A DNA stretch of 64,000 bases. It comes from Candidatus Levyibacteriota bacterium. GTDB taxonomy: Bacteria; Patescibacteriota; Microgenomatia; Levybacterales; UBA12049. Made by a program: the position numbers and the translations under genes. The DNA is taken from positions 685 through 64,684 of the forward strand of contig JBBSGT010000002.1 of the NCBI GenBank assembly GCA_038253825.1, in the 5' to 3' direction. Every line of letters begins with the position of its first letter. Position 1 is the first letter of the stretch. Of the stretch, positions 5,281 through 49,980 are shown one piece after another. Below the pieces are notes generated by a model. That model did not search any database and was not told where the DNA came from. It worked only from the letters and a program-made list of their open reading frames with translations.

Positions 5281-5310
5281 AACCCCGCAAAGTCGGGGTT
5301 TTTTTTATGG
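5281..5310 (+). terminator. Rho-independent terminator (CCCCG-CAAAGT-CGGGG followed by T8).
   Basis: GC hairpin followed by eight T residues, 118 nt after the 3646..5163 stop. It lies inside the track's over-extended N-terminus of the next ORF. Confidence 0.6.
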
Positions 5311-5316
5311 AAAAAT

Positions 5317-14257: not shown

Positions 14258-15859
14258 CTAGTTTATTCGTTTAAATATGAGGATATCTTGGGAGGTGTAG
14301 ACTTTCTTAAAATATTTATAAAGATCACCTTGAATTTTTGAGTTATTGTAAATTGCAGACCAAACTGCATCATTCTTTTGCATGACAATCCAGGTTGCAT
14401 ATTTTTCGGGATGTTTTAGCGATTCATCCCAATATGGTTTGTTTCCTACATAAATTACCTTTTGCATAGGAATTGTGCTTTGGGTAATACTTATCGTCCG
14501 AGCATAATCGTCAATGAGTACGAATCCCCCATCGTAATGTTCGTTAATAAATTGCTCTACGTTGGTCGGAACTTTATTGGCTGAAAGGCCATGTGTACCA
14601 TCAGCAAGCGTTATGACAGGGGTATCGCCCATAAAGAAAAGTGCTGTTTGTAATATAAGTAACATGATAAGCACAAGTTTCAAACTCTTATGTACTCTTG
14701 CAACAAGATAGCCAAAGAATACAGCCATAAAAGGAATTATCATAACACCATAGCGAACATTGAATAAATGATAATCAAAATGCTGTGGTGTCAAACCAGG
14801 AATAAAGATAACTGCCTGACCCAAAAAGAGTGAGACTACGTTAAAAACAAAAGGAACAAATAAGACCAAGAGTGTTCCAATTCTTGCTTTAGCAGAATTA
14901 CTTGCCAGAAAAACTATCGACCCAACAAGAGAAATAACGAAAATAAAGAATCCAGTGTTTGCTAGTGCTGTGTAGACATAATAAATAATTGATAAGAGCA
15001 GGTTATGATATGCAGGTAATTCACCTTTTGCCATCCAAGCGAGTTGTTGAGATTTTGCAGAATAAATACTATCAGTAAAATATAAAGGATCACCCAAAAT
15101 TAAACCGCCCCAAACGAACCAGCAAAGGATACCAAATCCGGCCAGGGTCACAAACAAAATCATATCTCCTTTTTGTCTGACAAAAAGTTTACGATTAAAA
15201 ATACCAGGAGAGATAACAATAAGTGTTTCGAAAAGAACGAGAAACCAACCATCATATCGTGTTAAAGATGCACCGAAAGCAAAAAGACCTGCAAGTATCA
15301 GCGAGGATAAAACGTGATTTCCATGAAGGTATTTAACAAAATAATAAGATGACAAGATGAAGAAAGCAATAAGGGGTATTTCAGTCATTGGGGTTGATTG
15401 CAAATATAAAATATTAAGATTCGTGGCAAAAATGGTAAATGCAATAAAAGATGCAAAGTTATGTTGTGTGATGAGTCTTGTGAGTTTAAAGATATAAATA
15501 CAAGCAATGACATAAAAAATACCTGAGATCAGTGAACCTGCAAGACCTGTACGCCATAAAGGATCTGCTATAACAAATGGCAGCATTAAAATATGCGTCA
15601 TCGGTAACCAAATGCCACCGAGTTGCGCAAACCCAGGTGTTAAACCGTTCACTACTTTTTTAGCGATATTGATATGTGATTCAGCGTCGCCGTAAGCAAG
15701 TATCCAGTGATTGATATACGAAATATACGTAGCAATAAACGCAGCACATATCGACAGGAGAAAAATCATTTTTTCCATATTTGTCGAAAAGAAAAGTTTT
15801 ATCTTTTTATTGAAACTCTCCATAAATGTTTGTTGTCTGGTGATAATAAAACTTTGCAT
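14258..15859 (-). CDS. Polytopic membrane protein, family A paralog 1; putative GT-C-like glycosyltransferase.
   Basis: Carries the motif YGDAESHINIAKKVVNGLTPGFAQLGGIWLPMTHILMLPF shared with 27182, 48397 and 50008, about 11 transmembrane helices, and a soluble C-terminal domain. Confidence 0.65.
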   Translation of the reverse strand: MQSFIITRQQTFMESFNKKIKLFFSTNMEKMIFLLSICAAFIATYISYINHWILAYGDAESHINIAKKVVNGLTPGFAQLGGIWLPMTHILMLPFVIADPLWRTGLAGSLISGIFYVIACIYIFKLTRLITQHNFASFIAFTIFATNLNILYLQSTPMTEIPLIAFFILSSYYFVKYLHGNHVLSSLILAGLFAFGASLTRYDGWFLVLFETLIVISPGIFNRKLFVRQKGDMILFVTLAGFGILCWFVWGGLILGDPLYFTDSIYSAKSQQLAWMAKGELPAYHNLLLSIIYYVYTALANTGFFIFVISLVGSIVFLASNSAKARIGTLLVLFVPFVFNVVSLFLGQAVIFIPGLTPQHFDYHLFNVRYGVMIIPFMAVFFGYLVARVHKSLKLVLIMLLILQTALFFMGDTPVITLADGTHGLSANKVPTNVEQFINEHYDGGFVLIDDYARTISITQSTIPMQKVIYVGNKPYWDESLKHPEKYATWIVMQKNDAVWSAIYNNSKIQGDLYKYFKKVYTSQDILIFKRIN

Positions 15860-15863
15860 ACTT

Positions 15864-18080
15864 TTAAATACCTACCATATTTTTCGTTGCCAATTCTTTC
15901 TTTACTACTTGTTTCACTTGATCACTTGTTTCTTTAAGTTTAAGATGCAAACCGTGTTTTGTTTTTGACCAATGATGGGGTTTTACAATAAGTTGATATA
16001 AAGCAATCCATGATGCAATACTCATTGTTAGCCAGTAAAGTGGAACCAGAAAGACATACTGTATAAGATCGTAATGACCATGTTTTGCACAACCGATCAT
16101 GTAGTAATAAAGATATAAGAAATTACCCACTACCAATGAAAATACACCCATATAAAGAACAGGTGCTGGGAAAAAGGATTCAATAAAATCACCGACAAAA
16201 GGACGGAAAATAAAATAAGTCAACGTAATAAACCACATTAACGGATTGATAAAAAGTGAAAGTACTTTTCCACCTATTACCAGTTGGAATGTAATAAGAT
16301 GTACACGTTTATTACTTGGCAAAAAAGTTTTCAGATTTCTGGTATGAACGAGGTATGTTTGCATGTATCCCTTAATCCATCGTGAACGTTGTGCAAACCA
16401 GTTCATAAGGCTGCTATTTGCTTCTTCCAGTGTCTCTGAATCAACAATGGCTGTCGTATAACCTTCTTTAACCAACCGAATTCCAAGATCAGCATCTTCT
16501 GTCACATTAAAACTATCCCATCCTTTGAGTTTGTGTAAGTCTTTGGTTCTAAAATGGTTTGAAGTTCCACCAAGAGGAATTGGGGCTCCAATAGATTGCA
16601 ACCCCGTTAAAACAAGATCAAACCAAAGTGAATATTCAGCGGTAAAGACTCGAGTTAAGAAATTTTGTTGGGGATTATAGAAATTTAATTTGGCTTGGAC
16701 ACAAATCGTATTTCTTCGAGCTTTCGCAAAAGCTATGACTGATTTTTTTAGCTGCAATGGATCAGGTGCATCTTCAGCATCATAAATTACTGCATACTCT
16801 CCTGTCGCTTTGGTCAAACCATAATTACAAGCTTTTGGCTTGGTTTTTGGATAAGAGTGAGGAACAATAACAACTTCAAAATAAGAAGGCAAGTTAAATT
16901 TTGCGACTTGATCAATCGTCTCTTTATCATTTGCTTCCAACAGCAACATAACTTGTAATTTATCTTTGGGATAAATAAGTTTACTCATAGAGTTAACGAA
17001 TTGCGGGATCACCTGCCATTCCTTATAAAGTGGGCAAAAGACTGTGTAGCTAGGCCAAATGTGGTCAGGAATAGCTTGAATTTCTTCGATGGATACTTTA
17101 ATTTCTGCCGGTTTTACAAAGCTTCTGGTAATCAAATAAAGATTAAATAAGAGATCTATAAAATAAAGAAATGTTAAGACTGCGATAAATATAATAATAG
17201 TAGTGTGCCAGTTAATAATAAGTCCGGTCAGAAGTATAAGCAATGTGACAATTATATAGACTCCTTGTTGAAAGGTAATTCTCTGAAAAGCTGTCTCTGC
17301 TGGCTTTAATAATGAATAGTGAATGAATTCTTTTCCGTTATAGTGAAATCCATTTCCTTTTACTTTCCTTGTGTTGCGATGAAATGGGATAATTTCTTTT
17401 CCTTGAAATTTCATTTTTATGGCATTAATGCCGATTTCCCAACTCGATTTTAGTAAATGAATTTTTGTTTCACCTGAGGTGCGTTTTGCTAGTCGCATAT
17501 TTATGGTATCGATTTTGTAACCAGCATCTAAACTTTTTTTCAGAAATTCTAAATCAAATGTCCAAGGTGAAGGATAAATATGCAGTCGTTCTATAATTTC
17601 TTTCTTAAATATTTTTAAGCCTGACTGAATATCGAAGTTCAGTCCATGGAGAATTTTACCAAAAATATAAAGAAAGCTGCGGCTAAAAAAATTACGAATG
17701 AAAGTAGTATTACTGAGAATACGATTCGCTACAACGACATCAGCCCCTCGATTAATTTTATCAAGCATTTCAGGAATTGATTCAGGTTGATACTGCAAAT
17801 CACCGTCGATCATACAAAGAAGATCATATTGAGCATAACTAAATCCTTCAAGAAGCGACTGGGCCTTGCCTGGGATTCCTTGTTTAAGATATAGACGGAC
17901 AGGAAAACGCTGAGCAAAGTGTTTGACGACTGATTGTGTTTTGTCGCTTGAATGATCATCGACCACAATGATCTCGTAAGATATATTTTTGTGGTAAAGC
18001 GTATTATTAATACGCTCAATAAGATGTCCTATATTCCCTACTTCGTTCCAAGTAGGAATGATAATTGAAAGGCTTTGCAT
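15864..18080 (-). CDS. Bifunctional glycosyltransferase: N-terminal DPM1/ArnC-like GT2 fused through transmembrane helices to a processive synthase-like GT2.
   Basis: N-terminal IIIPTWNE...VVDDHSSD...DGDLQY, and a C-terminal D, D, QRSRW (QxxRW) set with YDAEDAPD. Confidence 0.8.
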   Translation of the reverse strand: MQSLSIIIPTWNEVGNIGHLIERINNTLYHKNISYEIIVVDDHSSDKTQSVVKHFAQRFPVRLYLKQGIPGKAQSLLEGFSYAQYDLLCMIDGDLQYQPESIPEMLDKINRGADVVVANRILSNTTFIRNFFSRSFLYIFGKILHGLNFDIQSGLKIFKKEIIERLHIYPSPWTFDLEFLKKSLDAGYKIDTINMRLAKRTSGETKIHLLKSSWEIGINAIKMKFQGKEIIPFHRNTRKVKGNGFHYNGKEFIHYSLLKPAETAFQRITFQQGVYIIVTLLILLTGLIINWHTTIIIFIAVLTFLYFIDLLFNLYLITRSFVKPAEIKVSIEEIQAIPDHIWPSYTVFCPLYKEWQVIPQFVNSMSKLIYPKDKLQVMLLLEANDKETIDQVAKFNLPSYFEVVIVPHSYPKTKPKACNYGLTKATGEYAVIYDAEDAPDPLQLKKSVIAFAKARRNTICVQAKLNFYNPQQNFLTRVFTAEYSLWFDLVLTGLQSIGAPIPLGGTSNHFRTKDLHKLKGWDSFNVTEDADLGIRLVKEGYTTAIVDSETLEEANSSLMNWFAQRSRWIKGYMQTYLVHTRNLKTFLPSNKRVHLITFQLVIGGKVLSLFINPLMWFITLTYFIFRPFVGDFIESFFPAPVLYMGVFSLVVGNFLYLYYYMIGCAKHGHYDLIQYVFLVPLYWLTMSIASWIALYQLIVKPHHWSKTKHGLHLKLKETSDQVKQVVKKELATKNMVGI

Positions 18081-18582: not shown

Positions 18583-21500
18583 ATGATAATTTATCAGCTC
18601 ATAGTATCATACATTGCAAAATATATGTCAAATAAAATAAAATTATTCAGTGTTATTATACCTGTCTATAACGAAATTGGTAATATAGCGCAGTTTCATC
18701 AACACTTACTAAAAACACTTACCTCGTATAAAAAACGTTTCGAAATCATCTATATCGATGATAATTCGACAGATGGCACGTATGAATGGTTACAAAGTAT
18801 TTCCCTCGCGCCTACTATTAAGGTAATTTTAAAAAATGGCATTAAAGGTAAAGCATATTCACTCATCCAAGGTTTTGATGTAGCTAAAGGAGATGCTTTT
18901 GTCATGATTGACGGTGATCTTCAGTACCCACCGGAAAAAATTCCAGAGATGATTGATGCGCTACAAATATCTGATATTGTGGTAGCGGAACGAAAGAAAT
19001 ATAAAGATAGCACATTACGCAAATTTCTTAGTAAAGGATTCAAGACAGTATTTGGGAAAATGATGTTTGGTCTGAATACTGATATTCAATCGGGTCTGAA
19101 AGCCTTTACAAAAGAAGTCTATCAAACAATTCAGTTTCAGCCTGTTTCTCCATGGACATTCGATCTTGAATTCCTCTACCGTTCACAACAAGCAGGATTT
19201 AGTATTAAAAATGTATCAATCATCTTTGCTCCACGTTTGAGTGGCGAATCAAAAGTGAATGCTCTTAATCAATCATGGGAAATTGGAACCAACGCACTTT
19301 CAATAAAAATGAAAAGAAAGCTTTATTTGCCAATTAAGGCAGTAAAGGGTTCGATGCGTGGTGCAGGTATTGGATATAAAAAGAAAAAATATATTACCCA
19401 TACGACTTTACCTGCTTCCCTGTCTGCTATCGAAACCTTCTCTCTGTCACAGAAAATATTTTTTCTTGGATTTCCAGTTTTGTTAATCCTTGCTCTTTTT
19501 ATGTTCCCATTGCCTGCGGCAAGAACGATCGTAGGGGTTTTGAGTATGCTCTACTTCATTGATGCCCTCTTTAACGTATTTGTGGTAACTCGCAGTTTGC
19601 AAAAAGATCATGACATTAAAGTAAGTGATGATGAACTTTCACTCCTCGATGAAAGCAAATTGCCACTCTATTCTATTCTTTGTCCTTTATATAAAGAAGC
19701 GCACGTTGTACCACAATTTTTGGAAGGTATCGCAAAGCTTGACTATCCAAAAGATAAATTAGATGTGATGTTTCTTCTTGAAGAGGATGATCTAGAAACT
19801 ATTGCAGCCTTTGGTCAGATGACACTTCCTTACTATGCCCGTACAGTTATTGTTCCTGATTCACAACCAAAAACGAAACCCAAAGCTTGTAACTACGGAT
19901 TGTCTTATGCAAAGGGTAAATATCTTGTTATTTTCGATGCAGAAGATTTGCCAGATCCCCTACAACTGAAAAAGGCAGTTATCGGATTCAAAAAAGTTCC
20001 GGCAGATATTAAATGTTTACAAGCAAAGTTGAGTTATTATAACTCACGTCAGAATTTGCTTACTCGCTTCTTTACTGCAGAGTATGCTTTATGGTTTGAT
20101 GTCACACTGCCAGGTTTGCAATCGCTTAACTCAGCATTGCCGTTGGGTGGTACGAGTAACCATTTCGAGACAGCAAACTTACGCGAACTTGAAGGATGGG
20201 ATCCATTTAACGTAACAGAAGATGCTGATTTGGGTGTCCGGTTGTTCAAACATGGGTACCGTACCGCAATTATCGATTCAACAACCTACGAAGAAGCTAC
20301 AAGTGTGACAAAAAACTGGTTACGACAACGCTCCCGATGGCTTAAAGGTTACATGCAAACGTATTTAGTGCAAATGCGCAACATTAACTCATTTGTAAAG
20401 AATAAAGGTGTCTGGCATACCATAATCTTCCAATTGACAGTTGGTGGCAAGATCCTTTTCGTTCTTTTGAATCCATTTATGTGGATTATCACTATTTTGT
20501 ATTTCAGTGCGTATTCTATTTTTGGTCCGGTGATGCAGGAGATCTATCAACCTCCACTTTCCTATTTCGCAGTCTTTTCGTGGATATTTGGCAACTTTAT
20601 GTTCTTATATTGTTACATGATTGCCGTAGGAAAACGTGGTCAATGGGATCTTGCAAAGTATGTTTTGTTAATTCCGTTTTACTGGGTCCTTATGAGTACA
20701 GCTGCTATGGTTGGTTTGTATCAGCTTATCCTGAAACCTCATTATTGGGAAAAGACAATTCATGGATTCCATTTGACCAAAAAGAATCTACCGGTACCAG
20801 CGGTCAAACCGGTTGGACAGCCAATTGCACAACCTGTGTATGTTGCTGCAGCAACACCAGTAAATAAAATTAAAGATACCCCTTTTGTGCTTACAATGCC
20901 TTCACAAATAAATGTTTCAACATTTATCTTACGATGGTTACCACTCTTTGCGATATTAAACACCGATTTGGTCTTGGCACGGTTTTTCTTACCATATGAA
21001 GATGCACAACTTTATATTGTTCTTTCGTTATTTGGCAAAGCTGTTTTCATACTCAGTCAATTCCTTTCCAACGTCTTAACAGCAGCAACTTCTAAAAAGA
21101 GAGTCAGTAAAGGATATTTATATCGATTACTTTTCTTTACGTTCTTATTCAACTGGATCGGATTTGTGGTATTTGGGTTGGAAGGTTCATATACTATTCC
21201 AGCATTGCTTGGAAATACCTATACAGGCATTATTCCATACATGGGCTATTATCTTTTTGGACTTACTTGTTTGGGCTTGACGAATCGTCTTACAACCTTT
21301 AATCTCTACAAGAAAAAATATTCATATACGATGTTATCGGTAGCGATCATCTTGTTACAAGTACCCTTCATTATTCTGCACCATGAAACAGTTTATAACT
21401 TCGTACGCATCTTTGCGTACTTTGGTTCTATTAATCTTTTCGTCCTCGTTGTCCTTCAGATGAGCGTTGTTAAAAACCTCATTATGGAGAACAACTTTAT

Positions 21501-22713
21501 CAGCATATTTAAATTATTTGATAAGCAAGCAAGCAAAAAAGCATGGAATCAAAACAACATGCGTATTCTAATCTTTAACTGGAGAGATACAAAACACATA
21601 TATGCCGGGGGCGCTGAAGTGTATATTCATGAGTTAGCACAACGTTGGGTAAAAAACGGCAATAAAGTAACACTCTTTTCAGGAAATGACAACAATAATT
21701 CTGATTATGAAATAGTGGATGGTGTTGAAATATTTAGACGAGGTGGCACATATACTATCTATATATTTGCATTCCTCTATTACCTGCTCAAATTCCGTGG
21801 CAAATATGATGTCATAATCGATTGTGAGAATGGAATTCCTTTCTTCACACCTTTGTACGCGAAAGAACAAGTTATCTTGCTCGTTCATCATGTCCACCAA
21901 GAAATATTCCGTAACTTCTTGCGCTTTCCATTGAGCATAATTGCTGAACTTTTGGAAGGTAAGATGATGCCACTTGTTTATCAAAACAAAAACGTTGTCA
22001 CAGTCTCAGCTTCTTCACAGAAGGATATCTTTAAGCTCGGATTTACCAATGCGGGTAATATTGAAATTATTCCAAATGGTGTTTCTTCCGGCTTATTTGT
22101 TGACTATCCTAAAACCGATAACCCATCATTTGTCTATTTAGGCAGACTGAAAGAGTATAAAAATATTGATGTCGCCATTAAAGCTTTCGCAAAAGTGTTG
22201 CGTATTCACAAGAAAGCTACACTGGCAATTGTTGGTTCTGGAGAAAGTTTCCCCGTTTTAGCAGATCTGGTTACTGATTTAAATATCCATCACGCAATTA
22301 AATTCTATGGTCGTGTAAGTGAAGCTGAAAAGGCAAAATTATTAGCAAAAAGTTGGGCTGCAATTCAGCCTTCCCAAATTGAAGGCTGGGGAATAACCGT
22401 TATCGAAGCAAATGCAGCAGGTACACCTGTGATTGCCTCCAATGTTAATGGGTTGCAAGACTCAGTTGTCGATGGGCAAACAGGATTACTTGTTCAAGCT
22501 GGAAATGTAACACAATTTGCAAATGCTATGATGAAGATAGCAGAAGATGATGATGTTCGAATTTCACTTTCACAAGAAGCTCAATTATGGGCAAAGAAGT
22601 TCGATTGGGATTCAAGTGCTACAGCTTTTTATGGTCTCATCGGTAAGAACTTGGGTCAAGGTGCAATCCAGCCTTCATATACAGAAGTTGCTTTTACTTC
22701 ATCAGAAAAATAA
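18583..22713 (+). CDS. 1376 aa multi-domain glycosyltransferase: DPM1-like GT2, processive GT2 (QxxRW), an ~8-helix polytopic membrane module, and a C-terminal GT4.
   Basis: IIPVYNE...DDNSTDGT...DGDLQY; YDAEDLPD...QRSRWLKGY; C-terminal GT4 motif EGWGITVIEANAAGTPVIAS (EX7E). Confidence 0.8.
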   Translation: MIIYQLIVSYIAKYMSNKIKLFSVIIPVYNEIGNIAQFHQHLLKTLTSYKKRFEIIYIDDNSTDGTYEWLQSISLAPTIKVILKNGIKGKAYSLIQGFDVAKGDAFVMIDGDLQYPPEKIPEMIDALQISDIVVAERKKYKDSTLRKFLSKGFKTVFGKMMFGLNTDIQSGLKAFTKEVYQTIQFQPVSPWTFDLEFLYRSQQAGFSIKNVSIIFAPRLSGESKVNALNQSWEIGTNALSIKMKRKLYLPIKAVKGSMRGAGIGYKKKKYITHTTLPASLSAIETFSLSQKIFFLGFPVLLILALFMFPLPAARTIVGVLSMLYFIDALFNVFVVTRSLQKDHDIKVSDDELSLLDESKLPLYSILCPLYKEAHVVPQFLEGIAKLDYPKDKLDVMFLLEEDDLETIAAFGQMTLPYYARTVIVPDSQPKTKPKACNYGLSYAKGKYLVIFDAEDLPDPLQLKKAVIGFKKVPADIKCLQAKLSYYNSRQNLLTRFFTAEYALWFDVTLPGLQSLNSALPLGGTSNHFETANLRELEGWDPFNVTEDADLGVRLFKHGYRTAIIDSTTYEEATSVTKNWLRQRSRWLKGYMQTYLVQMRNINSFVKNKGVWHTIIFQLTVGGKILFVLLNPFMWIITILYFSAYSIFGPVMQEIYQPPLSYFAVFSWIFGNFMFLYCYMIAVGKRGQWDLAKYVLLIPFYWVLMSTAAMVGLYQLILKPHYWEKTIHGFHLTKKNLPVPAVKPVGQPIAQPVYVAAATPVNKIKDTPFVLTMPSQINVSTFILRWLPLFAILNTDLVLARFFLPYEDAQLYIVLSLFGKAVFILSQFLSNVLTAATSKKRVSKGYLYRLLFFTFLFNWIGFVVFGLEGSYTIPALLGNTYTGIIPYMGYYLFGLTCLGLTNRLTTFNLYKKKYSYTMLSVAIILLQVPFIILHHETVYNFVRIFAYFGSINLFVLVVLQMSVVKNLIMENNFISIFKLFDKQASKKAWNQNNMRILIFNWRDTKHIYAGGAEVYIHELAQRWVKNGNKVTLFSGNDNNNSDYEIVDGVEIFRRGGTYTIYIFAFLYYLLKFRGKYDVIIDCENGIPFFTPLYAKEQVILLVHHVHQEIFRNFLRFPLSIIAELLEGKMMPLVYQNKNVVTVSASSQKDIFKLGFTNAGNIEIIPNGVSSGLFVDYPKTDNPSFVYLGRLKEYKNIDVAIKAFAKVLRIHKKATLAIVGSGESFPVLADLVTDLNIHHAIKFYGRVSEAEKAKLLAKSWAAIQPSQIEGWGITVIEANAAGTPVIASNVNGLQDSVVDGQTGLLVQAGNVTQFANAMMKIAEDDDVRISLSQEAQLWAKKFDWDSSATAFYGLIGKNLGQGAIQPSYTEVAFTSSEK

Positions 22714-24754: not shown

Positions 24755-25609
24755 GTGTATAATGCCAGAACCTATAATCTAGGTAAGACTTTGAGTATGT
24801 ATTTATTATTTAAAATAGTAACAAGTATCAGAAAAATGGTATATCAAATACTCGGTTCACTAGACCAATTTGTTTTCCATATGAAAAATCCTGTTGTTAT
24901 CCTCTCGTATCATAGTGTTTCAAATGATGATTGGCGTTTTAGTGTAAGCGAAAAATCACTCAAAAAACAAATCGCTTATCTCAAAAAACATTTTGAGATT
25001 ATTACCCTCAAAAAACTTAGTGACCACCTTTCTGGAAAAAAGAAATTAACCCGTCCCGCCGTTGTACTTACTTTTGATGATGGGTATAAAGATATTTTGA
25101 AAATGGAAGCATATTTTAAGAAAAATAAAATTAAACCTGCATTATTTGTCCTCGCAAATAGTAAAAATCCAAATAGACAAGAATTGGGAAATAAAAAATC
25201 TTTCTTAAGTAAAAAAGAAATTCAATATTTGCACAATTCGGGTTGGGAAATTGGTTGTCACAGCGCAACACACGCAAACCTCGCAAGACTTTCTCAAAAA
25301 GAGCTTGATAAAGAAATTATGCAAGCCAAGCACAAAATGGAAAAGCAATTAGGATTTTCTATCCCCTATTTTGCTTATCCTCGTGGTAAATATAATGCAA
25401 ACGTAGTACGCTTAGTAAAAGTTGCGAACTTTTTAATGGGCTTTACTATGGATGATGGTATTATCAAACCAAATCGTGATGTATATACAATCCCACGGGT
25501 AGGAATTGATAGCACGCATACTTTTAGTGAATTCATTAATACTTTTTCTCCTTCAGTTGTCCGTTTTCGAGGTTTAATAAAGCGAAGTTCTGTGGGGAGG
25601 TATTTATGA
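24755..25609 (+). CDS. Polysaccharide deacetylase (NodB family).
   Basis: VVLTFDDGYKD (TFDDG motif) and HSATH. The true start may be the internal Met near 24881. Confidence 0.7.
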   Translation: MYNARTYNLGKTLSMYLLFKIVTSIRKMVYQILGSLDQFVFHMKNPVVILSYHSVSNDDWRFSVSEKSLKKQIAYLKKHFEIITLKKLSDHLSGKKKLTRPAVVLTFDDGYKDILKMEAYFKKNKIKPALFVLANSKNPNRQELGNKKSFLSKKEIQYLHNSGWEIGCHSATHANLARLSQKELDKEIMQAKHKMEKQLGFSIPYFAYPRGKYNANVVRLVKVANFLMGFTMDDGIIKPNRDVYTIPRVGIDSTHTFSEFINTFSPSVVRFRGLIKRSSVGRYL

Positions 25610-27192
25610 ACAAGTGGTTAGCAAATAAAAAAATTAAAATCTTAGGATATGTTCTGTTCACGTTTTTCTGCGCTTTAGTTTTGACATTATCAGTTCGTGG
25701 ACTTCCGGGCAATCCTGACACGAGTCAACTTAACAGATTAACCTGGAAAGATAACGGACCCCTAGAATTATCACCAGAACGTGGCCGTTACGCGTTGACA
25801 TACGCTATTGCAGAGACACATAAATTCAGTTTTTCACCTGATTTAGCGCGTTTTGCTGCGCCGGACGTGGGCTTTCTCAATGGACAATATGTCTCTCTGT
25901 TCGCGCCTACTGTATCATTTATTATTCTTCCCGGGTATTTGCTAGGAAAAGCAGTTGGGTTTGCACAAGTGGGAAGTTTTGCTGTGATTGCTTTATTTGC
26001 TTTGTTTAATGTCTATCTTATTCGTTCGATTTCCATAAAATTGGGCGCACACCCATTAGCTGGATTGATTGCTGGATTAGTATTCCTTTTTGCGACGCCT
26101 GCTTTTGCCTATGCCGTCACACTGTACCAACACCACATCTCAACATTTATCATTTTATCTGGTATTTATCTGTTAATTAGCTTTGACTCAGTGTGGGCGC
26201 TTATTGGTATTTGGATGCTTTGTGCTTTATCAATTTCGGTTGATTACCCGAATTTCTTTATGATGTTACCTATCGGCATCGGTGCGTTAGGTCGAACCAT
26301 CATAGCTAAAAAGCAACAGTATGGTTACGTTGTTAAAATCCCTGTTATGCGGGTTCTTGCGTTACTTACCATGATTATTCCATTGGCTTTCTTCTTATGG
26401 TTTAACAATGCTTCTTACGGAAGTCCTTTCCAATTATCAGGTACTGTAGATCGTTCGGTCCAAATTAATCCAAATGGTTCTCCTGTTTTGGAAAGTGAAC
26501 AGGTTAAAGCCCGGTTAAAATCAGCCGGCCAGCCTGCAGTAATTCCGCAAAAAAGTGCGTTAGGAGCATTTAATAGTCGGCTTATTATGCAAGGATTTTA
26601 TATTTATTTCTTCAGTCCAGATCGTGGAATAATTGTTTATACGCCTGTTATGCTTTTTGGATTTGCCGGTTTATTCCTAGCGCTCAAACAGAAACTGAAA
26701 TATACATGGTTATTGGTAGCAGTCATTGGATTTAATATTTTATTATACTCTATGTGGGATGATCCATATGGGGGTTGGGCATTTGGTTCACGTTATTTAA
26801 TCCCCTCATATGGAGTCCTGTCAATTTTCTTAGCGTATATATTGACCAGACTTTCAAAATATAATCTCTTTTTACTTTTCTTCTTCGCGATATATGTGTA
26901 TTCAGTAAGTGTCAATACACTTGGAGCACTTACCTCAAACAGAAATCCGCCCCAAGTCGAAGCTGTTGCTCTCTCTAAAGTAACGGGGCATGATGAACCA
27001 TATACCTACATCCGAAATCTGAATATTCTAAACTCAAATGAATCTAAATCAATCGTGTTTGATACGTATGCCACAAATTATATGAGTGCATGGAATTATT
27101 ATAGTTATGTAATGGTTCTTATTATTGTTGTCTCAGCGTTTTTACTGATGACATTGAAGTCGGTAACGAAAGGAGTTAAACATGCACTTTAA
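25606..27192 (+). CDS. Polytopic membrane protein; putative GT-C-type (ArnT/PMT-like) glycosyltransferase.
   Basis: 528 aa with at least 11 transmembrane helices and a large first extracytoplasmic loop with conserved acidic/aromatic residues; its start overlaps the upstream stop. Confidence 0.5.
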   Translation: MNKWLANKKIKILGYVLFTFFCALVLTLSVRGLPGNPDTSQLNRLTWKDNGPLELSPERGRYALTYAIAETHKFSFSPDLARFAAPDVGFLNGQYVSLFAPTVSFIILPGYLLGKAVGFAQVGSFAVIALFALFNVYLIRSISIKLGAHPLAGLIAGLVFLFATPAFAYAVTLYQHHISTFIILSGIYLLISFDSVWALIGIWMLCALSISVDYPNFFMMLPIGIGALGRTIIAKKQQYGYVVKIPVMRVLALLTMIIPLAFFLWFNNASYGSPFQLSGTVDRSVQINPNGSPVLESEQVKARLKSAGQPAVIPQKSALGAFNSRLIMQGFYIYFFSPDRGIIVYTPVMLFGFAGLFLALKQKLKYTWLLVAVIGFNILLYSMWDDPYGGWAFGSRYLIPSYGVLSIFLAYILTRLSKYNLFLLFFFAIYVYSVSVNTLGALTSNRNPPQVEAVALSKVTGHDEPYTYIRNLNILNSNESKSIVFDTYATNYMSAWNYYSYVMVLIIVVSAFLLMTLKSVTKGVKHAL

Positions 27193-28810
27193 TATCAGAA
27201 CATTTTCATTACAATTTTCAATCAACAATAAACCCGTAGAGGCAGCAAAAAAGTTATTTGAAAATCATGCAACAGTCATCCTCTTTTTCATGTTGAGTAT
27301 GATTTCTATTGCGAGCTTCTTATACTTTCTTTCAAATCATTTAGGTGTTGCATACAATGATGCCAGGTCACATTTGGATATTGCCCGTCGTGTTGTCGAA
27401 AATCTTAAACCCGGATTTGCTCAGCTAGGGAGTGTTTGGTTACCGCTTCCTCATTTACTTGCTACGTTGACAGTTTGGAATGACACGATGTGGCATACAG
27501 GACTGGCTGGCGCATTACAATCAATGATTTCGTATGTTGCCACAGGTATTCTTATTTACCGCATTTTGCAAGCACTGGGCGTTACTCTTTATGGTCGATT
27601 AGTAGGTGTTATTGTCTTTGCTTTGAATTTGAATATTATTTACATGCAATCTACAGCGATGACGGAGTTACTGCTTCTCGGTACGATGACTGCCGGCGTC
27701 TATGAATTAATCCAGTGGCACAAAGAAGAAAAAATGACACGACTTCTTATGTCAGGATTGTGGATTATGCTTTCAACGATGATTCGTTATGATGGTTGGT
27801 TTCTCCTTTTCTTTGCCACCATATTGATTATCATTCAGACCATGCGAAAACATAATTATAAAACTACAGAGGGTGTCGTGGTAATCTTCGGAACCTTGGC
27901 TGGATTTGGTATATTCCTCTGGTTTTTCTGGAATTTGATAATTTTTAAAGATCCACTTTACTTTATCTTAGGACCTTATGCAGCGGGAACACAACAACAA
28001 CAGTTGGCTGATGCTGGTGTTCTTGCAACCAAGCATAACCTGCCATTCTCACTCCAAACTTATATCTACGCTATCTTTTATAACAGTGGCGTCTTCACAA
28101 CGATTTTGGCATTTATAGGGGTTATTTTATTCTGGTTTGATAAAAAAATTAGTAAAGAGTTACGATATGCTGCAACTGCACTTTTAGCGCCATTTATATT
28201 CAATGTCCTTTCGCTTTACTTAGGACAATCAGTACTCTTTGTTCAAGGGTTACATGGAAATTCTTGGTTTAACGTCCGTTATGGTTTAATGATGATACCT
28301 TCAATTGCTGTATTTGTCGGTTATCTGACACAGCGAGTAAAACCAGTACGCTATGTCATTTTAGCGTTATTACTTTTTGTGACTTTTTTCAGTTATGTTA
28401 ATCGTGATGCCGTGACTATTGATGATGCTGTATTTGGTGCAAGTGGTAAAAATGTATCACAAGTTAGTAGCTGGCTGAATCAACATGTACCTAACAAGCC
28501 GGGATTTGTCTTAATATCAGTTGCTTCCCATGATGCTATTATTTTCTCTTCAGGTTTACCGATGAGCCGATTTATTCATGAAGGAACTGGTTTGTATTGG
28601 AATGCGGCTATAGCTCACCCTGTGCATTGGGCTCGCTGGATTATTTTGCGCACTGGTGATGCAAACGATCAAACATATAGATTATTGCATAATAATCGAG
28701 AATTCAAGAATGATTATACATTAACAGACCATTATCCTTTTGCTGACATTTATGAAATTAAGCCGCAATACGTGAAAGATCTTCACATCAAACCTTCCCT
28801 GGAACTCTAA
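27182..28810 (+). CDS. Family A membrane protein, paralog 2.
   Basis: Carries the family motif YNDARSHLDIARRVVENLKPGFAQLGSVWLPLPHLL. Confidence 0.65.
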   Translation: MHFNIRTFSLQFSINNKPVEAAKKLFENHATVILFFMLSMISIASFLYFLSNHLGVAYNDARSHLDIARRVVENLKPGFAQLGSVWLPLPHLLATLTVWNDTMWHTGLAGALQSMISYVATGILIYRILQALGVTLYGRLVGVIVFALNLNIIYMQSTAMTELLLLGTMTAGVYELIQWHKEEKMTRLLMSGLWIMLSTMIRYDGWFLLFFATILIIIQTMRKHNYKTTEGVVVIFGTLAGFGIFLWFFWNLIIFKDPLYFILGPYAAGTQQQQLADAGVLATKHNLPFSLQTYIYAIFYNSGVFTTILAFIGVILFWFDKKISKELRYAATALLAPFIFNVLSLYLGQSVLFVQGLHGNSWFNVRYGLMMIPSIAVFVGYLTQRVKPVRYVILALLLFVTFFSYVNRDAVTIDDAVFGASGKNVSQVSSWLNQHVPNKPGFVLISVASHDAIIFSSGLPMSRFIHEGTGLYWNAAIAHPVHWARWIILRTGDANDQTYRLLHNNREFKNDYTLTDHYPFADIYEIKPQYVKDLHIKPSLEL

Positions 28811-28833
28811 TTATTTTCGGGTATAATAAATAT

Positions 28834-29832
28834 ATGACCTTTACCCGGGGAGAAAAAATTTATATTTTCGTTACCTTTCTCGTTGGCATGAGTATTTTTT
28901 CCTTACTTATTTTGCCTAGCCAAAATAACAAACTCCATATGAAACAGACACAATGGCAAATACAATCAATTGATACTATGAAATATTCTCGTGATATGGC
29001 GAAATATAATGCGAGCAATGTGAAATATACTACTGAGGTCAAAAAACAAGTTGCAGATATTGCGAATACAGGCGCAAATTATATTGCGATTGATACGCCT
29101 TATGATGACGAATTTCTTCCGGTATTGAATTTATGGGTATACACAGCAAGAGAACATGGGTTACATATATGGTTCAGGGGAAACTGGTCAGGTTGGGAAG
29201 GTTGGTTTGGGTATAATCGCATTGATGAGCAAACACATCTAGCAAAAACAAAGCAATTTATTAAAGAAAATAAAGATCTTTTTCAAGATGGAGATATATT
29301 TAGCTCCTGTCCGGAATGTGAAAATGGTGATGCGAAGCTCAATTTAGCTAATCAGCAGTCAGTTGCTGCCTATCGACAATTTCTTATTGAAGAATATCAG
29401 GCAACCAAAGATGCATTTGTAGATATCCATAAAAATGTCGCCAGTAACTATTTTTCAATGAATACAGACGTTGCCCGAGAGATCATGGATAGAGAAACAA
29501 CTATTCAGCTTGATGGACTTGTTGTCATTGACCACTATGTTTTAACGCCTGAGCAATTGGCAAATGATGTTTCATTAATTGCTCTGCAAAGTGGCGGAAA
29601 TATTATGTTGGGAGAAATGGGTGCACCAATTCCCAGTATTCATGGCGCAATGACTGATGAACAACAAAGGCAATGGCTTGAGCAATCTTTACACGAGCTC
29701 TCTCAAATAGGTAAATTAAACGGCATAAACTACTGGGTTAATAAAGGTGGTTCGACCGCATTATGGAGACCAGATGGTTCTCCCAAGCCCGCCGTAGCCG
29801 TCATAAAATCCTATTTCACCAAAAACCAATAA
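28834..29832 (+). CDS. Secreted family B protein; putative clan GH-A-like glycoside hydrolase.
   Basis: Signal-anchor helix, the motifs WQIQSIDTMK, GANYIAIDTPYD and WFRGNWSGWEGWF, and candidate catalytic glutamates in CPECENG and GEMGAPIP. Confidence 0.55.
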   Translation: MTFTRGEKIYIFVTFLVGMSIFSLLILPSQNNKLHMKQTQWQIQSIDTMKYSRDMAKYNASNVKYTTEVKKQVADIANTGANYIAIDTPYDDEFLPVLNLWVYTAREHGLHIWFRGNWSGWEGWFGYNRIDEQTHLAKTKQFIKENKDLFQDGDIFSSCPECENGDAKLNLANQQSVAAYRQFLIEEYQATKDAFVDIHKNVASNYFSMNTDVAREIMDRETTIQLDGLVVIDHYVLTPEQLANDVSLIALQSGGNIMLGEMGAPIPSIHGAMTDEQQRQWLEQSLHELSQIGKLNGINYWVNKGGSTALWRPDGSPKPAVAVIKSYFTKNQ

Positions 29833-42516: not shown

Positions 42517-43248
42517 CTACCTATTAGGTCCTACAAATAATTTTCGATGATGTGTAACGCTTTTTACCCAGGTTTTTAATCGCCAAACATGTTTTTTTGT
42601 GTTCTCAAGAAAAGCTCTAGTCGATATTCCTGCAATAAGATCTCGATCAAAGAGTATAATACCATACTGAGAGATATGTAACGCTAGATCGACATCTTCA
42701 TGTACTTTGTAACTATCATGACAAACATCGTTTTTTACTTTTTGCCATGCATGCTTTGTGATAACCATATTTGAACCAAATAATGTTTCATGACCGAGCA
42801 TGATTTTGCTTACTGCGAAGAAACCATAACGTGAAGTGATATCACTCGTTATTTTTCTTAGAGTGCTATCCTGAACAGCGTAAAAATATTGTGGGCCTGA
42901 GACTCCAACAATATCTTGGGCTCTGTTATCAAGTATTCTATGGACTTTCTCAACCCAGTCAATTGGTATACGAGTGTCTGCATCAATTCGTGCTAACAAG
43001 TCCCCCTTTGCAGCATTAAAACCAGCATCACGAGCTGGAATCATCCCTTGTTCGGTTTCATTTATAAGAGTAACGAATGGAAAAGTTTTGGCTATTTCTG
43101 CTGTTTTATCAGTAGAATTATTGTTGACGACAATGACTTCATCAGGGGGAAAGGTTTGTTGTTGTATTGCTTCCATGCATGATCCAATGTACTCCTCTTC
43201 ATTGTATGCAATGACGATAAGAGACAATGCGGGTATATAATGTCGCAT
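42517..43248 (-). CDS. Family 2 glycosyltransferase.
   Basis: [14 protein letters not shown] and DAD/DxD motifs. The track N-terminus (to 43329) runs through tRNA-Leu, so the start was moved to the Met at 43248 ([10 protein letters not shown]). Confidence 0.7.
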
Positions 43249-43260
43249 GGTATACACGAG

Positions 43261-43343
43261 TGCCGCGAGCGAGAGTCGAACTCGCACGCCCTTGCGGACG
43301 GGGGCTCTTAAGGCCCCTGTGTCTGCCATTCCACCACCGCGGC
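43261..43343 (-). tRNA. tRNA-Leu (anticodon TAA), type II with a long variable arm.
   Basis: Reverse complement GCCGCGGTGGTGGAATGGCAGACACAGGGGCCTTAAGAGCCCC..., with anticodon loop CTTAAGA, a long variable arm and T-arm GCGAGTTCGACTCTCGC. Confidence 0.85.
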
Positions 43344-44251: not shown

Positions 44252-45841
44252 ATGACACAATCTAATTCACGCACGTCCAATAAAATTGTACCCTTTGACG
44301 ATGAAACAGAACGAAAACTAGGCAAAGGGTTCCACCATAAAGGCATTCAATATGTTCATCATTCTCGTCTGCATCCTCATCAAACTGCATTTTTTAGACT
44401 ATCAACATTTCAAAAATATTTTCTTCTCTTCCTTCTACTTCTAGCTGCATGTTGTTTGGCTCTCAATTGGCATTTATCCATTACTATCGCAGTAGCAGTA
44501 CTTATTTTTTTATATTTTGCCGATCTTCTTTTTAATCTATTCCTTATCTATCGAAGTTTTACGAAACGTCCTGAAATCAACGTGACAAACGAAGAACTTA
44601 ACGCAGTTGGTGACAATGAATGGCCTGTTTACACGATCCTCTGTCCACTTTATAAAGAATGGCAAGTTGTACCCCAATTCGCAAAAGCTTTAAGCAATAT
44701 GGATTACCCAAAAGATAAATTACAAGCGATTCTGTTGCTGGAAGAGGATGATCATGAAACGATCAAAAAAGTACAAGAACTGCATTTGCCTCCTTATTTT
44801 GAAACAGTTGTTGTCCCCGACTCAAAACCAAAAACAAAACCTAAAGCCAGCAATTATGGTTTGAAATTCGCCCGTGGAGAATATACTGTTATATATGATG
44901 CAGAAGATGTTCCTGATCCATTACAGTTAAAAAAAGCAATCATTGCTTTTAAAAAAGCAGGTTCGAAAGTTATCTGTATTCAAGCAAAACTGAATTTTTA
45001 TAACCCTCATCAAAATCTATTGACAAGGGTTTTTACAGCGGAATACTCGTTATGGTTTGATTTAGTCTTAACAGGATTGCAATCCATTCATGCGCCAATT
45101 CCTTTGGGCGGCACTTCCAATCATTTCCATACACAAGATCTACACAAGCTGAAAGGTTGGGATTCTTTCAACGTTACAGAGGATGCAGATCTTGGGATGC
45201 GCTTGGTCAAACACGGTTATCGTACCGCTGTTATTGAATCAATAACACTTGAAGAAGCGAATAGTAGCTTGAAAAATTGGTTTGGTCAGCGTTCTCGCTG
45301 GATTAAGGGCTATATTCAGACTTACTTCGTCCATATGCGTAATCCAAGTGAATTTATCAGAACCTGGAACGAGCCTCATTATATTACATTTCAGCTGGTA
45401 ATCGGTGGCAAAGTCATGTCTATGTTTATTAATCCAATGCTTTGGTTAATTACGATTTGTTATTTTGTCTTTCGAGCAAAAATAGGGAGTTTTATTGATT
45501 CATTCTTCCCAGCGCCTGTCCTTTATATGGGAGTTATTTCTTTATTACTTGGTAACTTTTTATACGCATACTATTATATGGTCGGATGTGTCAAACATGG
45601 CCATGATGAATTAGTGAAATATATCTTTCTCGTACCTTTTTATTGGCTTGCAATGAGTATTGCCGCATGGATAGCTGTTTATCGCTTTATTGTTGCTCCC
45701 CATTATTGGTCCAAAACTAAACACGGATTGCATCTGGACAACAAAAAATTTATAACACAGACAGAGGTTCTTCAAGATAAACAAACAAAAGTAATAAGAA
45801 GAGGATTTAAACAATCTACTTCGCGATCTGTAATAGCTTAA
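44252..45841 (+). CDS. Processive synthase-like GT2 (QxxRW); a close paralog of the C-terminal two-thirds of 15864..18080.
   Basis: YDAEDVPD and QRSRWIKGY. Long stretches are nearly identical to the 15864 protein (LNFYNPxQNxLTRVFTAEYSLWFDLVLTGLQSI...GGTSNHF). Confidence 0.8.
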   Translation: MTQSNSRTSNKIVPFDDETERKLGKGFHHKGIQYVHHSRLHPHQTAFFRLSTFQKYFLLFLLLLAACCLALNWHLSITIAVAVLIFLYFADLLFNLFLIYRSFTKRPEINVTNEELNAVGDNEWPVYTILCPLYKEWQVVPQFAKALSNMDYPKDKLQAILLLEEDDHETIKKVQELHLPPYFETVVVPDSKPKTKPKASNYGLKFARGEYTVIYDAEDVPDPLQLKKAIIAFKKAGSKVICIQAKLNFYNPHQNLLTRVFTAEYSLWFDLVLTGLQSIHAPIPLGGTSNHFHTQDLHKLKGWDSFNVTEDADLGMRLVKHGYRTAVIESITLEEANSSLKNWFGQRSRWIKGYIQTYFVHMRNPSEFIRTWNEPHYITFQLVIGGKVMSMFINPMLWLITICYFVFRAKIGSFIDSFFPAPVLYMGVISLLLGNFLYAYYYMVGCVKHGHDELVKYIFLVPFYWLAMSIAAWIAVYRFIVAPHYWSKTKHGLHLDNKKFITQTEVLQDKQTKVIRRGFKQSTSRSVIA

Positions 45842-47882: not shown

Positions 47883-48400
47883 ATAAAAGAGTTAAACTGC
47901 ATTTCGGTTGTGGCAATAAATATCTTAAGGGTTTTATTAATTGTGATATTTCGAAGACAGTGAAAACTGATAAGATTTTTGATATGGATATTTCCCCATA
48001 CCCCTTTAAGGCAAATTTCGCGGATGAAATTTAAATGGATATGATTCTTGAACATATTGATAATGTTGTAGACGTAATGGAAGAGCTCTATCGGATCCTA
48101 AAAAATGATGAAATTGTTAGAATATACGCTCCCTATTCCAAAAGTGAATGGGATGTACAAGATCCGACCCATAAACATTTTTTTAATGAAAAAAGTATGG
48201 ATTATTTTATTGACGATTATAGATATAATTATTATACAAATATTAGGTTTAAGAAAATTCATGCTTATTTATATACAAGTGATGAAACGCTTTTGAGTAA
48301 GCTAAGAAACTTAATACCATTTAGAAATGTATTAACATATTTTCTTTTTAATATGTATGATGGAATCTATTTTGAGTTAAAGGCTATAAAAGATTTATGA
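47879..48400 (+). pseudogene. Class I SAM-dependent methyltransferase interrupted by an in-frame TAA at 48032-48034. It is either a split gene or a pseudogene.
   Basis: The N-terminal part (MNKRVKLHFGCGNKYLKGFINCDI..FADEI*) carries motif I. The downstream ORF (MDMILEHIDNVVDVMEELYRILKNDEIVRIYAP) carries the LEH and post-II motifs in the same frame. ATGA overlap with the upstream GT4 stop. Confidence 0.6.
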
Positions 48401-49980
48401 AACTCTTAACCAACATACTTATAAAACATCAGTATAAACTAATTTTATTATTTCTCTTCATTGTTAGTGCATTAGCAATTGAATATTTTTTTCTGTTGGG
48501 GCAACTCACTCTTTATGCTGACACTATGTCCCGCCTGGATATTGCTAGAAAAATCATTGATAATATAACACCAGGATTTGCTCAGGTCGGAAATGTTTGG
48601 CTACCGCTTCCTCAAATACTCATGCTACCTTTTATCTGGAATAGTTATCTATGGCATTCTGGCCTTGCTGGATCTTTCATGTCAATGTTTATGTTTATTA
48701 TTGGTGGCTATTTTGTCTATAAATCCGTATATCTCTTATCACAGTCGCCTTTGAGATCATTCTTATCCTTATTAATTTATTCTCTTAATATAAATTTATT
48801 ATATCTTCAGTCGACAGCGATGTCAGAAACAGCACTGATATGTACAATATCAGCCACGATATATTATTTTCTTGTTTGGACTAAAACCAAAAATAAAATG
48901 GACTTAATTCCTGCTGGGATCGCTGTCAGCTTGATGACGCTGACAAGATATGAAGGATTAGCTATTTTATTTGCTTCAATTCCAATGGTATTTATGATGG
49001 GGTTATTTATGTATAAGAACAGAATAAAATCAGAATCAGCGACTATTATCTATACTGTTTTAGCTATAACTGGGTTTTCTGCATGGACATTGTATTTAGC
49101 TTTAATTTTTGGTGATCCATTTTATTGGATTAATTATTATGCAACTCCCCAAGCGGTAGGTGAATCTCATATAAAATTATATACACAACATAAGTCATTT
49201 ACTGTTGCATCTATACAATATCTTACAGCAATGATTTGGACTATTGGATTGATTCCAATAATTATGTCTATTTTAGGTTCTGTCATACTTATTTATCAGT
49301 CATTTAAAAAGAAAACTCTCTATTTATTTCCTTTATTTCTTCCCCTTGCTATATTTTTGTTCATGGTGCTATCACTACAGCGAAATACACCTATAGGTCA
49401 ACCCGACCTAACAATAACAAACATTTTGTCTGGCAAAACAAGTCATATGGTGGGTTTTAATATCAGATATGGAATAATATTGATACCATGGGTTGCGGTA
49501 ATGTCTTCATTTTTATTCTCAATGAGAAATAGTATAGTAAAATTATTAATCTTTTCTGTTTTCTTTCTACAGATTTATTCATACTTTTTTCCAAAATATA
49601 CCGTGATCTATCAAATTCCCTTACAAATTCATGGTGGAAGAGAGCTTACTCCGTTTGGTGTTTGGTTGAGAAAAAATTATGATGGTGGCAAAATTTTGAT
49701 TAGTGCTATGGATCATGAAGATACAATGTTTGAAATGGGATTTAACTATAGTACATATATTCATGAAGGAAATCAACATTTTTGGAAGGATTCACTTAAA
49801 CATCCAGCTAGATACGCTTCATGGATAGTACTTGACTACGGAACCGGGATATCTAAGGATCCAAAAGTTAAATCACTGATGCATTCACCGGACTTAAAAA
49901 AAGATTATAAATTAGTTTATGTCGAGAATGGACTGCGTATATATAAGATTAAACATAAACCATATCTTGAAATTAAATGA
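48397..49980 (+). CDS. Family A membrane protein, paralog 3.
   Basis: Carries LYADTMSRLDIARKIIDNITPGFAQVGNVWLPLPQILMLPF. Confidence 0.65.
   Translation: MKLLTNILIKHQYKLILLFLFIVSALAIEYFFLLGQLTLYADTMSRLDIARKIIDNITPGFAQVGNVWLPLPQILMLPFIWNSYLWHSGLAGSFMSMFMFIIGGYFVYKSVYLLSQSPLRSFLSLLIYSLNINLLYLQSTAMSETALICTISATIYYFLVWTKTKNKMDLIPAGIAVSLMTLTRYEGLAILFASIPMVFMMGLFMYKNRIKSESATIIYTVLAITGFSAWTLYLALIFGDPFYWINYYATPQAVGESHIKLYTQHKSFTVASIQYLTAMIWTIGLIPIIMSILGSVILIYQSFKKKTLYLFPLFLPLAIFLFMVLSLQRNTPIGQPDLTITNILSGKTSHMVGFNIRYGIILIPWVAVMSSFLFSMRNSIVKLLIFSVFFLQIYSYFFPKYTVIYQIPLQIHGGRELTPFGVWLRKNYDGGKILISAMDHEDTMFEMGFNYSTYIHEGNQHFWKDSLKHPARYASWIVLDYGTGISKDPKVKSLMHSPDLKKDYKLVYVENGLRIYKIKHKPYLEIK

Follow-up and report, generated by a model that had tools for sequence, protein, structure and literature searches.

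Here, we provide sequence and structure-model evidence that a single open reading frame (ORF) in a Candidatus Levyibacteriota genome joins three glycosyltransferase (GT) domains and one lobe of a MOP-superfamily flippase in one polypeptide. The frame lies at positions 18583..22713 (+) of a 64-kb stretch of contig JBBSGT010000002.1 (64,000 nt, hereafter the window) and is present without interruption, with 1376 codons counted from the first ATG. An NCBI protein (P0001) from a Candidatus Levyibacteriota metagenome-assembled genome, annotated there just as 'glycosyltransferase', is 100% identical to the fusion and 1362 aa long. Because of this length, and because homologues start at the equivalent of Met15, translation likely begins at Met15 (ATG at nt 18625) and yields 1362 aa. 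The original prediction of three GT domains in a single chain was borne out by Pfam annotation, with all domains above gathering scores: a GT2 domain at aa 23-175 (PF00535; GT2a), a second GT2 domain at aa 363-642 (PF13641/PF13632; GT2b), and a GT4 domain at aa 1009-1334 (PF13439 and PF00534). In an AlphaFold2 (AF2) model of aa 255-1376 (mean pLDDT 87.9, pTM 0.58), the elements follow one another as a beta-hairpin, two transmembrane (TM) helices, the GT2b catalytic domain, the QxxRW interface helix, three hydrophobic helices, a linker, six long helices with an amphipathic helix, and GT4. The intervening membrane module of about eight helices that had been proposed is thus present as a membrane segment, but not as one module, as it is composed of three GT2b helices, a disordered linker, and six TM helices plus one amphipathic helix.

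The fusion and its catalytic modules

More than 100 proteins share the same collinear architecture with 50-81% identity and 97-99% coverage in NCBI, JGI, ENA, and Logan assemblies. Across GTDB, with a single genome scanned for each species, at least 586 related loci were returned; most of the best 80 span aa ~15-1355, and these belong to Levy-, Woese-, Ames-, Gottesman-, Roizman-, and Daviesbacteria as well as to Moran- and Doudnabacteria. The fusion is therefore common within the Candidate Phyla Radiation (CPR; Patescibacteria), and the earlier statement that such enzymes are normally separate holds for the bacteria that have been studied, but not for this group. Many loci with the full-length fusion (e.g., L009, L014, and L023) are found in Third Party Annotation assemblies labeled 'uncultured Gammaproteobacteria', 'Pseudomonadales', or 'Bdellovibrionales', which, given their CPR-type gene content, are probably automatic mis-assignments. 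Automatic annotations of homologues read only 'glycosyltransferase', 'XagB', or 'cellulose synthase/PNAG synthase-like', and we found neither this fusion nor half-sized MOP proteins described in the literature. All modules fall into known superfamilies, and no curated equivalog threshold is reached by any of them.

Split versions of the architecture in other organisms, and a homologue (P0122) that sits behind an apparently interrupted GT2b gene, could be taken to mean that the ORF is an assembly or annotation artefact in which adjacent genes were misjoined. Such an error is hardly conceivable in view of the uninterrupted frame, the identical NCBI protein, and the more than 100 collinear full-length homologues from independent samples and assemblers, some on contigs of 1.0-1.6 Mb. 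With synteny also kept among these contigs, the misjoined chimera that had been raised as a concern together with the original prediction is effectively refuted.

GT2a (18625..19347, +; aa 15-255) is a GT-A domain with the motifs DDNST (aa 59-63) and DGD (aa 110-112) and matches PF00535 with 128 bits (cut-off 23.3). It appears most like the polyprenyl-phosphate sugar synthases of the DPM1/GtrB/ArnC type. Its three best solved relatives by sequence are Pyrococcus DPMS (5mlz, 7.6e-25), GtrB (5eke, 1e-19), and ArnC (1e-16), followed at a distance by heparosan synthase (1.6e-4), which agrees with the 'DPM1-like' label first given to this domain. Most of the top NCBIfam matches also come from the group formed by DPM1/DPMS, GtrB, ArnC, PgfS/GacI, and AglJ, with which GT2a shares the GT-A domain and its DxD motif; the best were PgfS (87.4 bits, cut-off 500), ArnC (75.6, cut-off 529), and AglJ (57.9, cut-off 325). 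Unlike in these enzymes, no TM or juxtamembrane helix can be clearly attributed to GT2a itself, which is tethered via GT2b, and transfer of sugar to polyprenyl phosphate by GT2a is a prediction.

GT2b comprises three segments. The first (19348..19602, +; aa 256-340), delineated by AF2 secondary structure, hydropathy, and counts of Lys and Arg (K+R), consists of a conserved cytoplasmic beta-hairpin (GAGIGYKKKKYITHTT) and the TM1-TM2 hairpin. It was assigned to GT2b because it is retained in homologues without GT2a (P0042, P0076, and the window paralogue p529); TM1 and TM2 follow GT2a, yet persist in its absence, and so belong to GT2b. The catalytic domain (19603..20409, +; aa 341-609) carries the motifs EEDD (400-403), DAED (452-455), TED (545-547), and QRSRW (582-586), all invariant across 120 sequences, the last on an amphipathic interface helix (576-598) seen in AF2 secondary structure and hydropathy. 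The C-terminal segment (20410..20775, +; aa 610-731) contains TM3, TM4, a third hydrophobic helix, and the invariant motif KPHYWEKTxHGFH, with the three helices at aa 610-642, 659-684, and 688-717 in the AF2 model. By the same model and hydropathy, the catalytic domain thus lies between TM1-2 and TM3/TM4, which is the layout of membrane GT2 enzymes. A Pro-rich, disordered linker follows (20776..20904, +; aa 732-774), with pLDDT <50 over aa 730-773 and a mean pairwise identity of 29%.

The label 'processive QxxRW' given to this second GT2 domain is upheld by its best solved relative, BcsA. A GT2b profile matched E. coli BcsA (7lby, 1.1e-19), Rhodobacter BcsA (4e-10), and HAS1 (2.6e-6), and the alignment with BcsA covers every motif, DxD, TED, and QxxRW included, and reaches the first TM helix after QxxRW, with which TM3 aligns. 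GT2b therefore shares with BcsA, HAS, PgaC, IcaA, and NodC the conserved D, the DxD-type motif, TED, QxxRW with its interface helix, and the following TM helix. BcsA proper is excluded, as the window paralogues of GT2b reach only 69.9-71.7 bits against a CelA cut-off of 699 and the 25 best NCBIfam matches listed for the fusion do not include CelA; PgaC scores are likewise far under the cut-off. In contrast to BcsA with its eight TM helices, GT2b has four. No PilZ domain was matched by Pfam in the fusion, and no BcsB-like neighbor was found among the window proteins scanned. GT2b further differs from BcsA-type synthases by the family-specific GAGIGYKKKKYITHTT beta-hairpin, by KPHYWEKTxHGFH, and by the fusion of other enzymes on both sides.

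GT4 (21550..22653, +; aa 990-1357) is a retaining GT-B domain with the motifs GGAE (aa 1009-1012) and E1267-x7-E1275, the latter (EX7E) being invariant among homologues. It scored 134 and 61 bits with PF00534 and PF13439, above the cut-offs, and its best Foldseek match was MshA (3c4q, TM-score (target) 0.79), followed by BshA and PimA (all about 0.78-0.79). GT4 shares the GT-B fold, the EX7E motif, and both Pfam families with these enzymes, but it forms the C-terminal part of a membrane protein, has 15-22% identity to them, and stays far under the MshA and BshA equivalog cut-offs.

All three catalytic domains are predicted to be cytoplasmic, with membrane crossings of 2 + 2 + 6, based on the charge distribution, the even number of TM helices, and orthologues that lack the MOP module. 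The same placement is expected because the three GT domains need nucleotide sugars. Each predicted cytoplasmic loop contains 3-5 K+R and each predicted external loop 0-1. In the MOP-less orthologues, the end of GT2b is joined to GT4 by a soluble linker of ~45-95 aa, so that the GT2b C-terminus must be cytoplasmic. Helix 688-717 has K/R-rich loops at both ends and is probably an interface helix and not a TM pass. A topology with three post-catalytic TM helices, which would place GT4 outside the cell, was ruled out by the MOP-less orthologues and the charge distribution.

The half-sized MOP module and its history

The extra polytopic segment between linker and GT4 had been proposed to act as a translocation channel or polymerase. 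This assignment was not retained; by homology and by structure matches of its model, the segment (20905..21537, +; aa 775-985) is a half-MOP module, namely the C-terminal lobe (TM7-12) of a Wzx/MurJ-type MOP flippase. Six TM helices and a C-terminal amphipathic helix span aa 775-977 in the AF2 model. At exactly this position, homologues of ~1570 aa are longer by about 200 residues, and insert and six helices together make up a full 12-helix MOP domain, with only the C-terminal half of which the window half-MOP aligns. A long form (P0086) matches PF13440 with 53.5 bits (cut-off 23) and four homologues match PF01943, whereas the Pfam scan of the window fusion itself gave no MOP family match. A phmmer search with aa 770-985 against 1.84 billion representatives returned 220 matches, which cover residues ~220-420 of stand-alone MOP proteins of ~420-470 aa with E-values down to 9e-19. 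Foldseek with the 1122-residue model gave GT4 matches only and none for the membrane parts, which were handled by the GT2b sequence profile and by a separate AF2 model of the half-MOP (pLDDT 93.9, pTM 0.88). The nine best PDB matches of the latter are all members of the MOP superfamily, with TM-scores (query) of 0.64-0.65 for MurJ, 0.61 for WzxE, and 0.61 for MATE; TM-scores (target) are ~0.3, in line with the half size of the module, with weak E-values of 0.03-1. The module is hence homologous to TM7-12 of stand-alone members of the MOP flippases (Wzx/WzxE and MurJ; Polysacc_synt, Polysacc_synt_3) and of the full module in the long forms. Where a MOP protein has two pseudo-symmetric lobes with 12-14 TM helices around a substrate cavity, the window protein has one lobe of six, with ~200 residues fewer than the long forms, placed mid-chain in a multi-enzyme protein. 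No homologue of the MOP N-lobe was found elsewhere in the 64-kb window.

Module hidden Markov models applied to the 120 top homologues, with weak cross-hits between GT2a and GT2b ignored, resolved four architectures. About 65 are GT2a-GT2b-halfMOP-GT4 as in the window and 41 are GT2a-GT2b-fullMOP-GT4, while GT2a is lacking in eight (GT2b-halfMOP-GT4) and the MOP module in six (GT2a-GT2b-GT4). In addition, a split form is present at locus L091, where one gene (L091:2-244) ends with the GT2b C-terminus (...KPHYWEKTVHGLHL...stop) and a MOP-GT4 gene (P0124, L091:246-2771) starts 1 nt later. The lengths of the two-module proteins add up accordingly: 738 aa for GT2a-GT2b, as also encoded in the window, and about 835 aa for MOP-GT4 give about 1570 aa. 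Most parsimoniously, adjacent GT2a-GT2b and MOP-GT4 genes were fused to the ~1570-aa long form, a deletion of the MOP N-lobe then gave rise to the ~1370-aa form, and the MOP module was wholly lost in other lineages. Both two-module proteins still exist on their own and, at one locus, directly next to each other.

The half-MOP query also recovered, as cluster representatives, about 80 stand-alone MOP proteins, 26 MOP-GT4 fusions (~800-860 aa), and 11 MOP-GT2 fusions. Fusion of the MOP flippase to cytoplasmic enzymes is evidently frequent in these organisms. The same MOP subfamily was seen joined to APH-type kinase-like and GrpB domains, and to GT2 at either end (P0128, P0134, P0140, P0146, P0136, and P0148). 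Proteins of ~840 aa are not uniformly MOP-GT4, as was initially considered. In L090, a stop codon lies within GT2b (L090:1-639, ending ...HFKIQALRGLK) and the 838-aa P0122 (L090:817-3333) is the C-terminal remainder of a short form behind it, through either pseudogene formation or a sequencing error; the 26 genuine MOP-GT4 representatives remain.

In the window protein, the half-MOP is probably vestigial, because some orthologues do without the module and its half-sized versions diverge more quickly. Its mean pairwise identity is 0.35 in the short forms versus 0.45 for the same lobe in the long forms. GT2b (0.70 versus 0.69) and GT4 (0.65 versus 0.58) are no less conserved in the short forms. 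This faster divergence relative to the full-length counterpart indicates relaxed constraint after deletion of the N-lobe. On the other hand, D795 and K819 are invariant in 65 half-MOP sequences and the AF2 model is very confident, which indicates that the lobe is still under selection and may be no mere relic.

It is tempting to propose that the half-MOP is a working transporter element, either with the paired lobes of two chains rebuilding a Wzx-like flippase or with the lobe completing the pore of the four-TM synthase, but we consider this unlikely. The second possibility, in which the half-MOP was recruited to form a hybrid synthase-flippase channel with GT2b, fits with GT2b having fewer TM helices than BcsA, with the position of the lobe always directly after GT2b, and with its confidently predicted fold and two invariant charged intramembrane residues. 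Yet the lobe is separated from GT2b by a linker of 43 disordered and poorly conserved residues, the MOP-less orthologues and two window paralogues (p738 and p529) share the GT2b core without extra helices, and the pTM of 0.58 comes with no confident interface, so that such a channel seems rather improbable. If the half-MOP did work in transport, it would become the first MOP protein of half size with a function, would offer a living model for the 6-TM ancestor from which the superfamily arose, and would sit in a single-chain machine that primes, extends, and flips a glycan for the CPR cell surface.

Conserved neighbors and window paralogues

Domain shuffling within this family is visible in the window, as originally noted, since 15864..18080 (-) has both GT2 domains and 44252..45841 (+) the second only, and both are true paralogues of the fusion. 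The former encodes a divergently transcribed GT2a-GT2b protein of 738 aa (p738) with 49% identity over fusion aa 23-734, and this divergent pair is also present in L001 and L089. The latter, a GT2b core of 529 aa (p529), has 52% identity over fusion aa 260-734 and is followed by separate GT2, GT4, and two GT-C-like genes.

Downstream of the fusion, tailoring enzymes were identified by Pfam as a GT2 (22726-23616, +), a polysaccharide pyruvyl transferase (23642-24733, +), and a NodB-type polysaccharide deacetylase (24755-25609, +). This gene order is common to the window and L001; other genomes have GT4s, a DegT aminotransferase, PIG-L, or a FemAB-like enzyme. The conserved partners come next (25606..29832, +), with two polytopic proteins of 528 and 542 aa and then a membrane-anchored or secreted protein of 332 aa. 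Two polytopic proteins (~500-545 aa) and a membrane-anchored protein of 330-420 aa are found downstream of half-MOP (L001), full-MOP (L003), and MOP-less (L088, L089) forms alike, while no such polytopic pair was called downstream of the GT2a-less form P0042. Further downstream, a T/P-rich surface protein of 218 aa (30027-30683, +) has a signal peptide and a C-terminal LASTG, TM helix, and KKFGK, i.e., an LAxTG-type sorting signal, and is directly followed by a sortase (30673-31224, +). L001, L003, and L089 also have a similar-sized pair (a gene for ~190-205 aa, then a sortase) downstream of their fusions, the likeness being one of size and position. The 218-aa protein is a possible target of O-glycosylation. 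This neighborhood, with its GT-C-like polytopic proteins, its tailoring enzymes that vary among genomes, and its sortase and sortase substrate, points to assembly of a cell-surface glycan.

Another GT-C-like polytopic protein of 533 aa is encoded next to the GT2a-GT2b paralogue (14258..15859, -). It is a paralogue of the polytopic proteins at 27182..28810, 48397..49980, and 50008..51513 (all +), with 30-38% identity among the four, and by a hydropathy threshold the polytopic neighbors have at least 7-10 TM helices. Weak PMT_2 matches of two of the paralogues and an invariant Asp suggest that they may be GT-C enzymes. In L001 (4737-7376, -) and L089 (5078-7654, -), the gene beside the GT2a-GT2b paralogue is a fusion of a PMT-like polytopic domain with GH8, the family of the cellulose-synthase partner BcsZ, whereas the window 533-aa protein at that position has no GH8 domain. 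L089 proteins at the equivalent position match PMT and PMT_2 strongly, and direct similarity of the L089 PMT-GH8 protein to the window 533-aa protein is marginal. The locus can be likened to the actinobacterial Ppm1/Pmt protein O-mannosylation system.

Three paralogous sets were observed in the window, in each of which a GT2b-core gene lies near GT-C-like polytopic and secreted paralogues. The secreted paralogues (28834-29832, 51464-52774, and 52935-54215, all +) have 39-47% identity and weak matches to Glyco_hydro_cc and CarboxypepD_reg. This arrangement suggests that the genome has three glycan systems side by side. A membrane protein of the VTT/DedA family, which has been linked to undecaprenyl-phosphate recycling, is encoded a few kb past the downstream end of the glycan locus (34170-34823, +). 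The 505-aa product of 3646-5163 (+) is hydrophobic at its N-terminus (MKKMKRLFNSFLPIIPYAIVFVFSLY) and has no Pfam match; a gene for a PIG-L-type deacetylase follows (5260-6054, +), and this pair may be another small glycoconjugate module. A tRNA (43261-43343, -) overlaps the 5' end of a GT2 ORF (42517..43329, -), the Pfam domain of which starts only at aa 36, and the true start of this GT2 must hence be further downstream. Rfam identified four tRNAs only across the window and no riboswitch, for c-di-GMP or other ligands, upstream of the fusion; promoter and terminator scans did not rise above shuffled background.

Proposed function and implications for CPR surface glycans

Taken as a whole, we moderately favor the proposal that the fusion is a conserved CPR enzyme that unites most of a cell-surface glycan pathway in one polypeptide. 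GT2a would load a sugar onto polyprenyl phosphate, GT2b would polymerise a beta-linked backbone and pass the polymer through the membrane, and GT4 would make a primer or side branch. The half-MOP would be largely a relic that serves as membrane tether or scaffold, with the main polymer export proceeding via GT2b. The lipid-linked sugar made by GT2a could be used outside the membrane by the GT-C-like neighbors to decorate the polymer or the T/P-rich sortase-anchored protein.

Several observations weigh against this proposal. The pTM of 0.58 means that the mutual placement of the modules is not reliably predicted. No NCBIfam equivalog cut-off was reached by the domains of the fusion and all matches were far below. 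With four TM helices only, channel formation by GT2b alone is a conjecture. The GT-C reading of the neighbors leans on weak PMT_2 matches, which are sub-threshold in two of the polytopic paralogues (E 1e-4 to 1e-3), and on one invariant Asp in the first loop, and PDB sequence and profile searches with the polytopic and secreted neighbors found no relatives.

The proposal of an alternative, single lipid-linked assembly line follows archaeal AglJ-type or Wzx-type logic. GT2a would prime polyprenyl phosphate, GT2b, GT4, the neighboring GT2, and the tailoring enzymes would extend and modify the glycan on the cytoplasmic face, the MOP module would flip it (short forms would do so by pairing two half-MOP lobes or jointly with the GT2b helices), and the GT-C-like neighbors would transfer or polymerise it outside. 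Consecutive steps are usual for fused modules, lipid-linked glycans are the cargo of MOP flippases, and fusions to cytoplasmic GT4 or GT2 domains recur in this MOP subfamily. Moreover, the tailoring genes vary among genomes as in Wzx/Wzy loci, AglJ is among the NCBIfam matches of GT2a and of its paralogue, and D795 and K819 are invariant. A polyprenyl-phosphate sugar-1-phosphate transferase was absent from the 40 window proteins scanned with Pfam, the six unscanned ORFs of at least 150 aa all being <250 aa, which also speaks for the assembly line. However, MOP-less orthologues keep GT2a, GT2b, GT4, and the same partners without a separate MOP gene nearby, and flipping by the MOP module therefore cannot be essential. 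The half-MOP is also less constrained than the full module, and GT2b bears the full signature of self-translocating synthases. We know of no functional 6-TM MOP protein, and none was found in the literature either. We thus regard the assembly line as the main, yet doubtful, alternative to a fusion that exports its polymer via GT2b.

There is precedent for systems composed of a GT-A polyprenyl-phosphate sugar synthase, a Wzx-type flippase, and a GT-C enzyme (PMC8035078). The Gram-positive transmembrane glycosylation systems GacI/J-GacK-GacL, CsbB-GtcA-YfhO, and GtlA-GtlB have such a parts list, in which the flippase can be Wzx-type and the GT-C enzyme is polytopic, in some cases with PMT_2 (PMC8035078). 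Their counterparts at the window locus are GT2a, the MOP module, and the GT-C-like neighbors, the GT-C nature of which is weakly supported, with the T/P-rich sortase substrate as a possible acceptor. Unlike in the Gram-positive systems, where the components are separate proteins, two of the parts here share a chain with a processive synthase and a GT4, and only half of the flippase is left.

CPR bacteria are tiny, mostly uncultured, and episymbiotic, and their surface chemistry is almost unknown. The locus described here, which includes the fusion, GT-C-like partners, variable tailoring enzymes, a sortase, and the sortase substrate, is conserved across many Microgenomates and related lineages and is thus a strong candidate for the central apparatus behind a major surface glycan. 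By physically joining enzymes that are separate elsewhere, the fusion states which activities cooperate, and it is a compact target to express heterologously. Nature has moreover supplied split genes and forms with a full MOP, a half-MOP, or no MOP module, a series that amounts to an experiment on the need for a Wzx-type flippase beside a cellulose-synthase-like enzyme.

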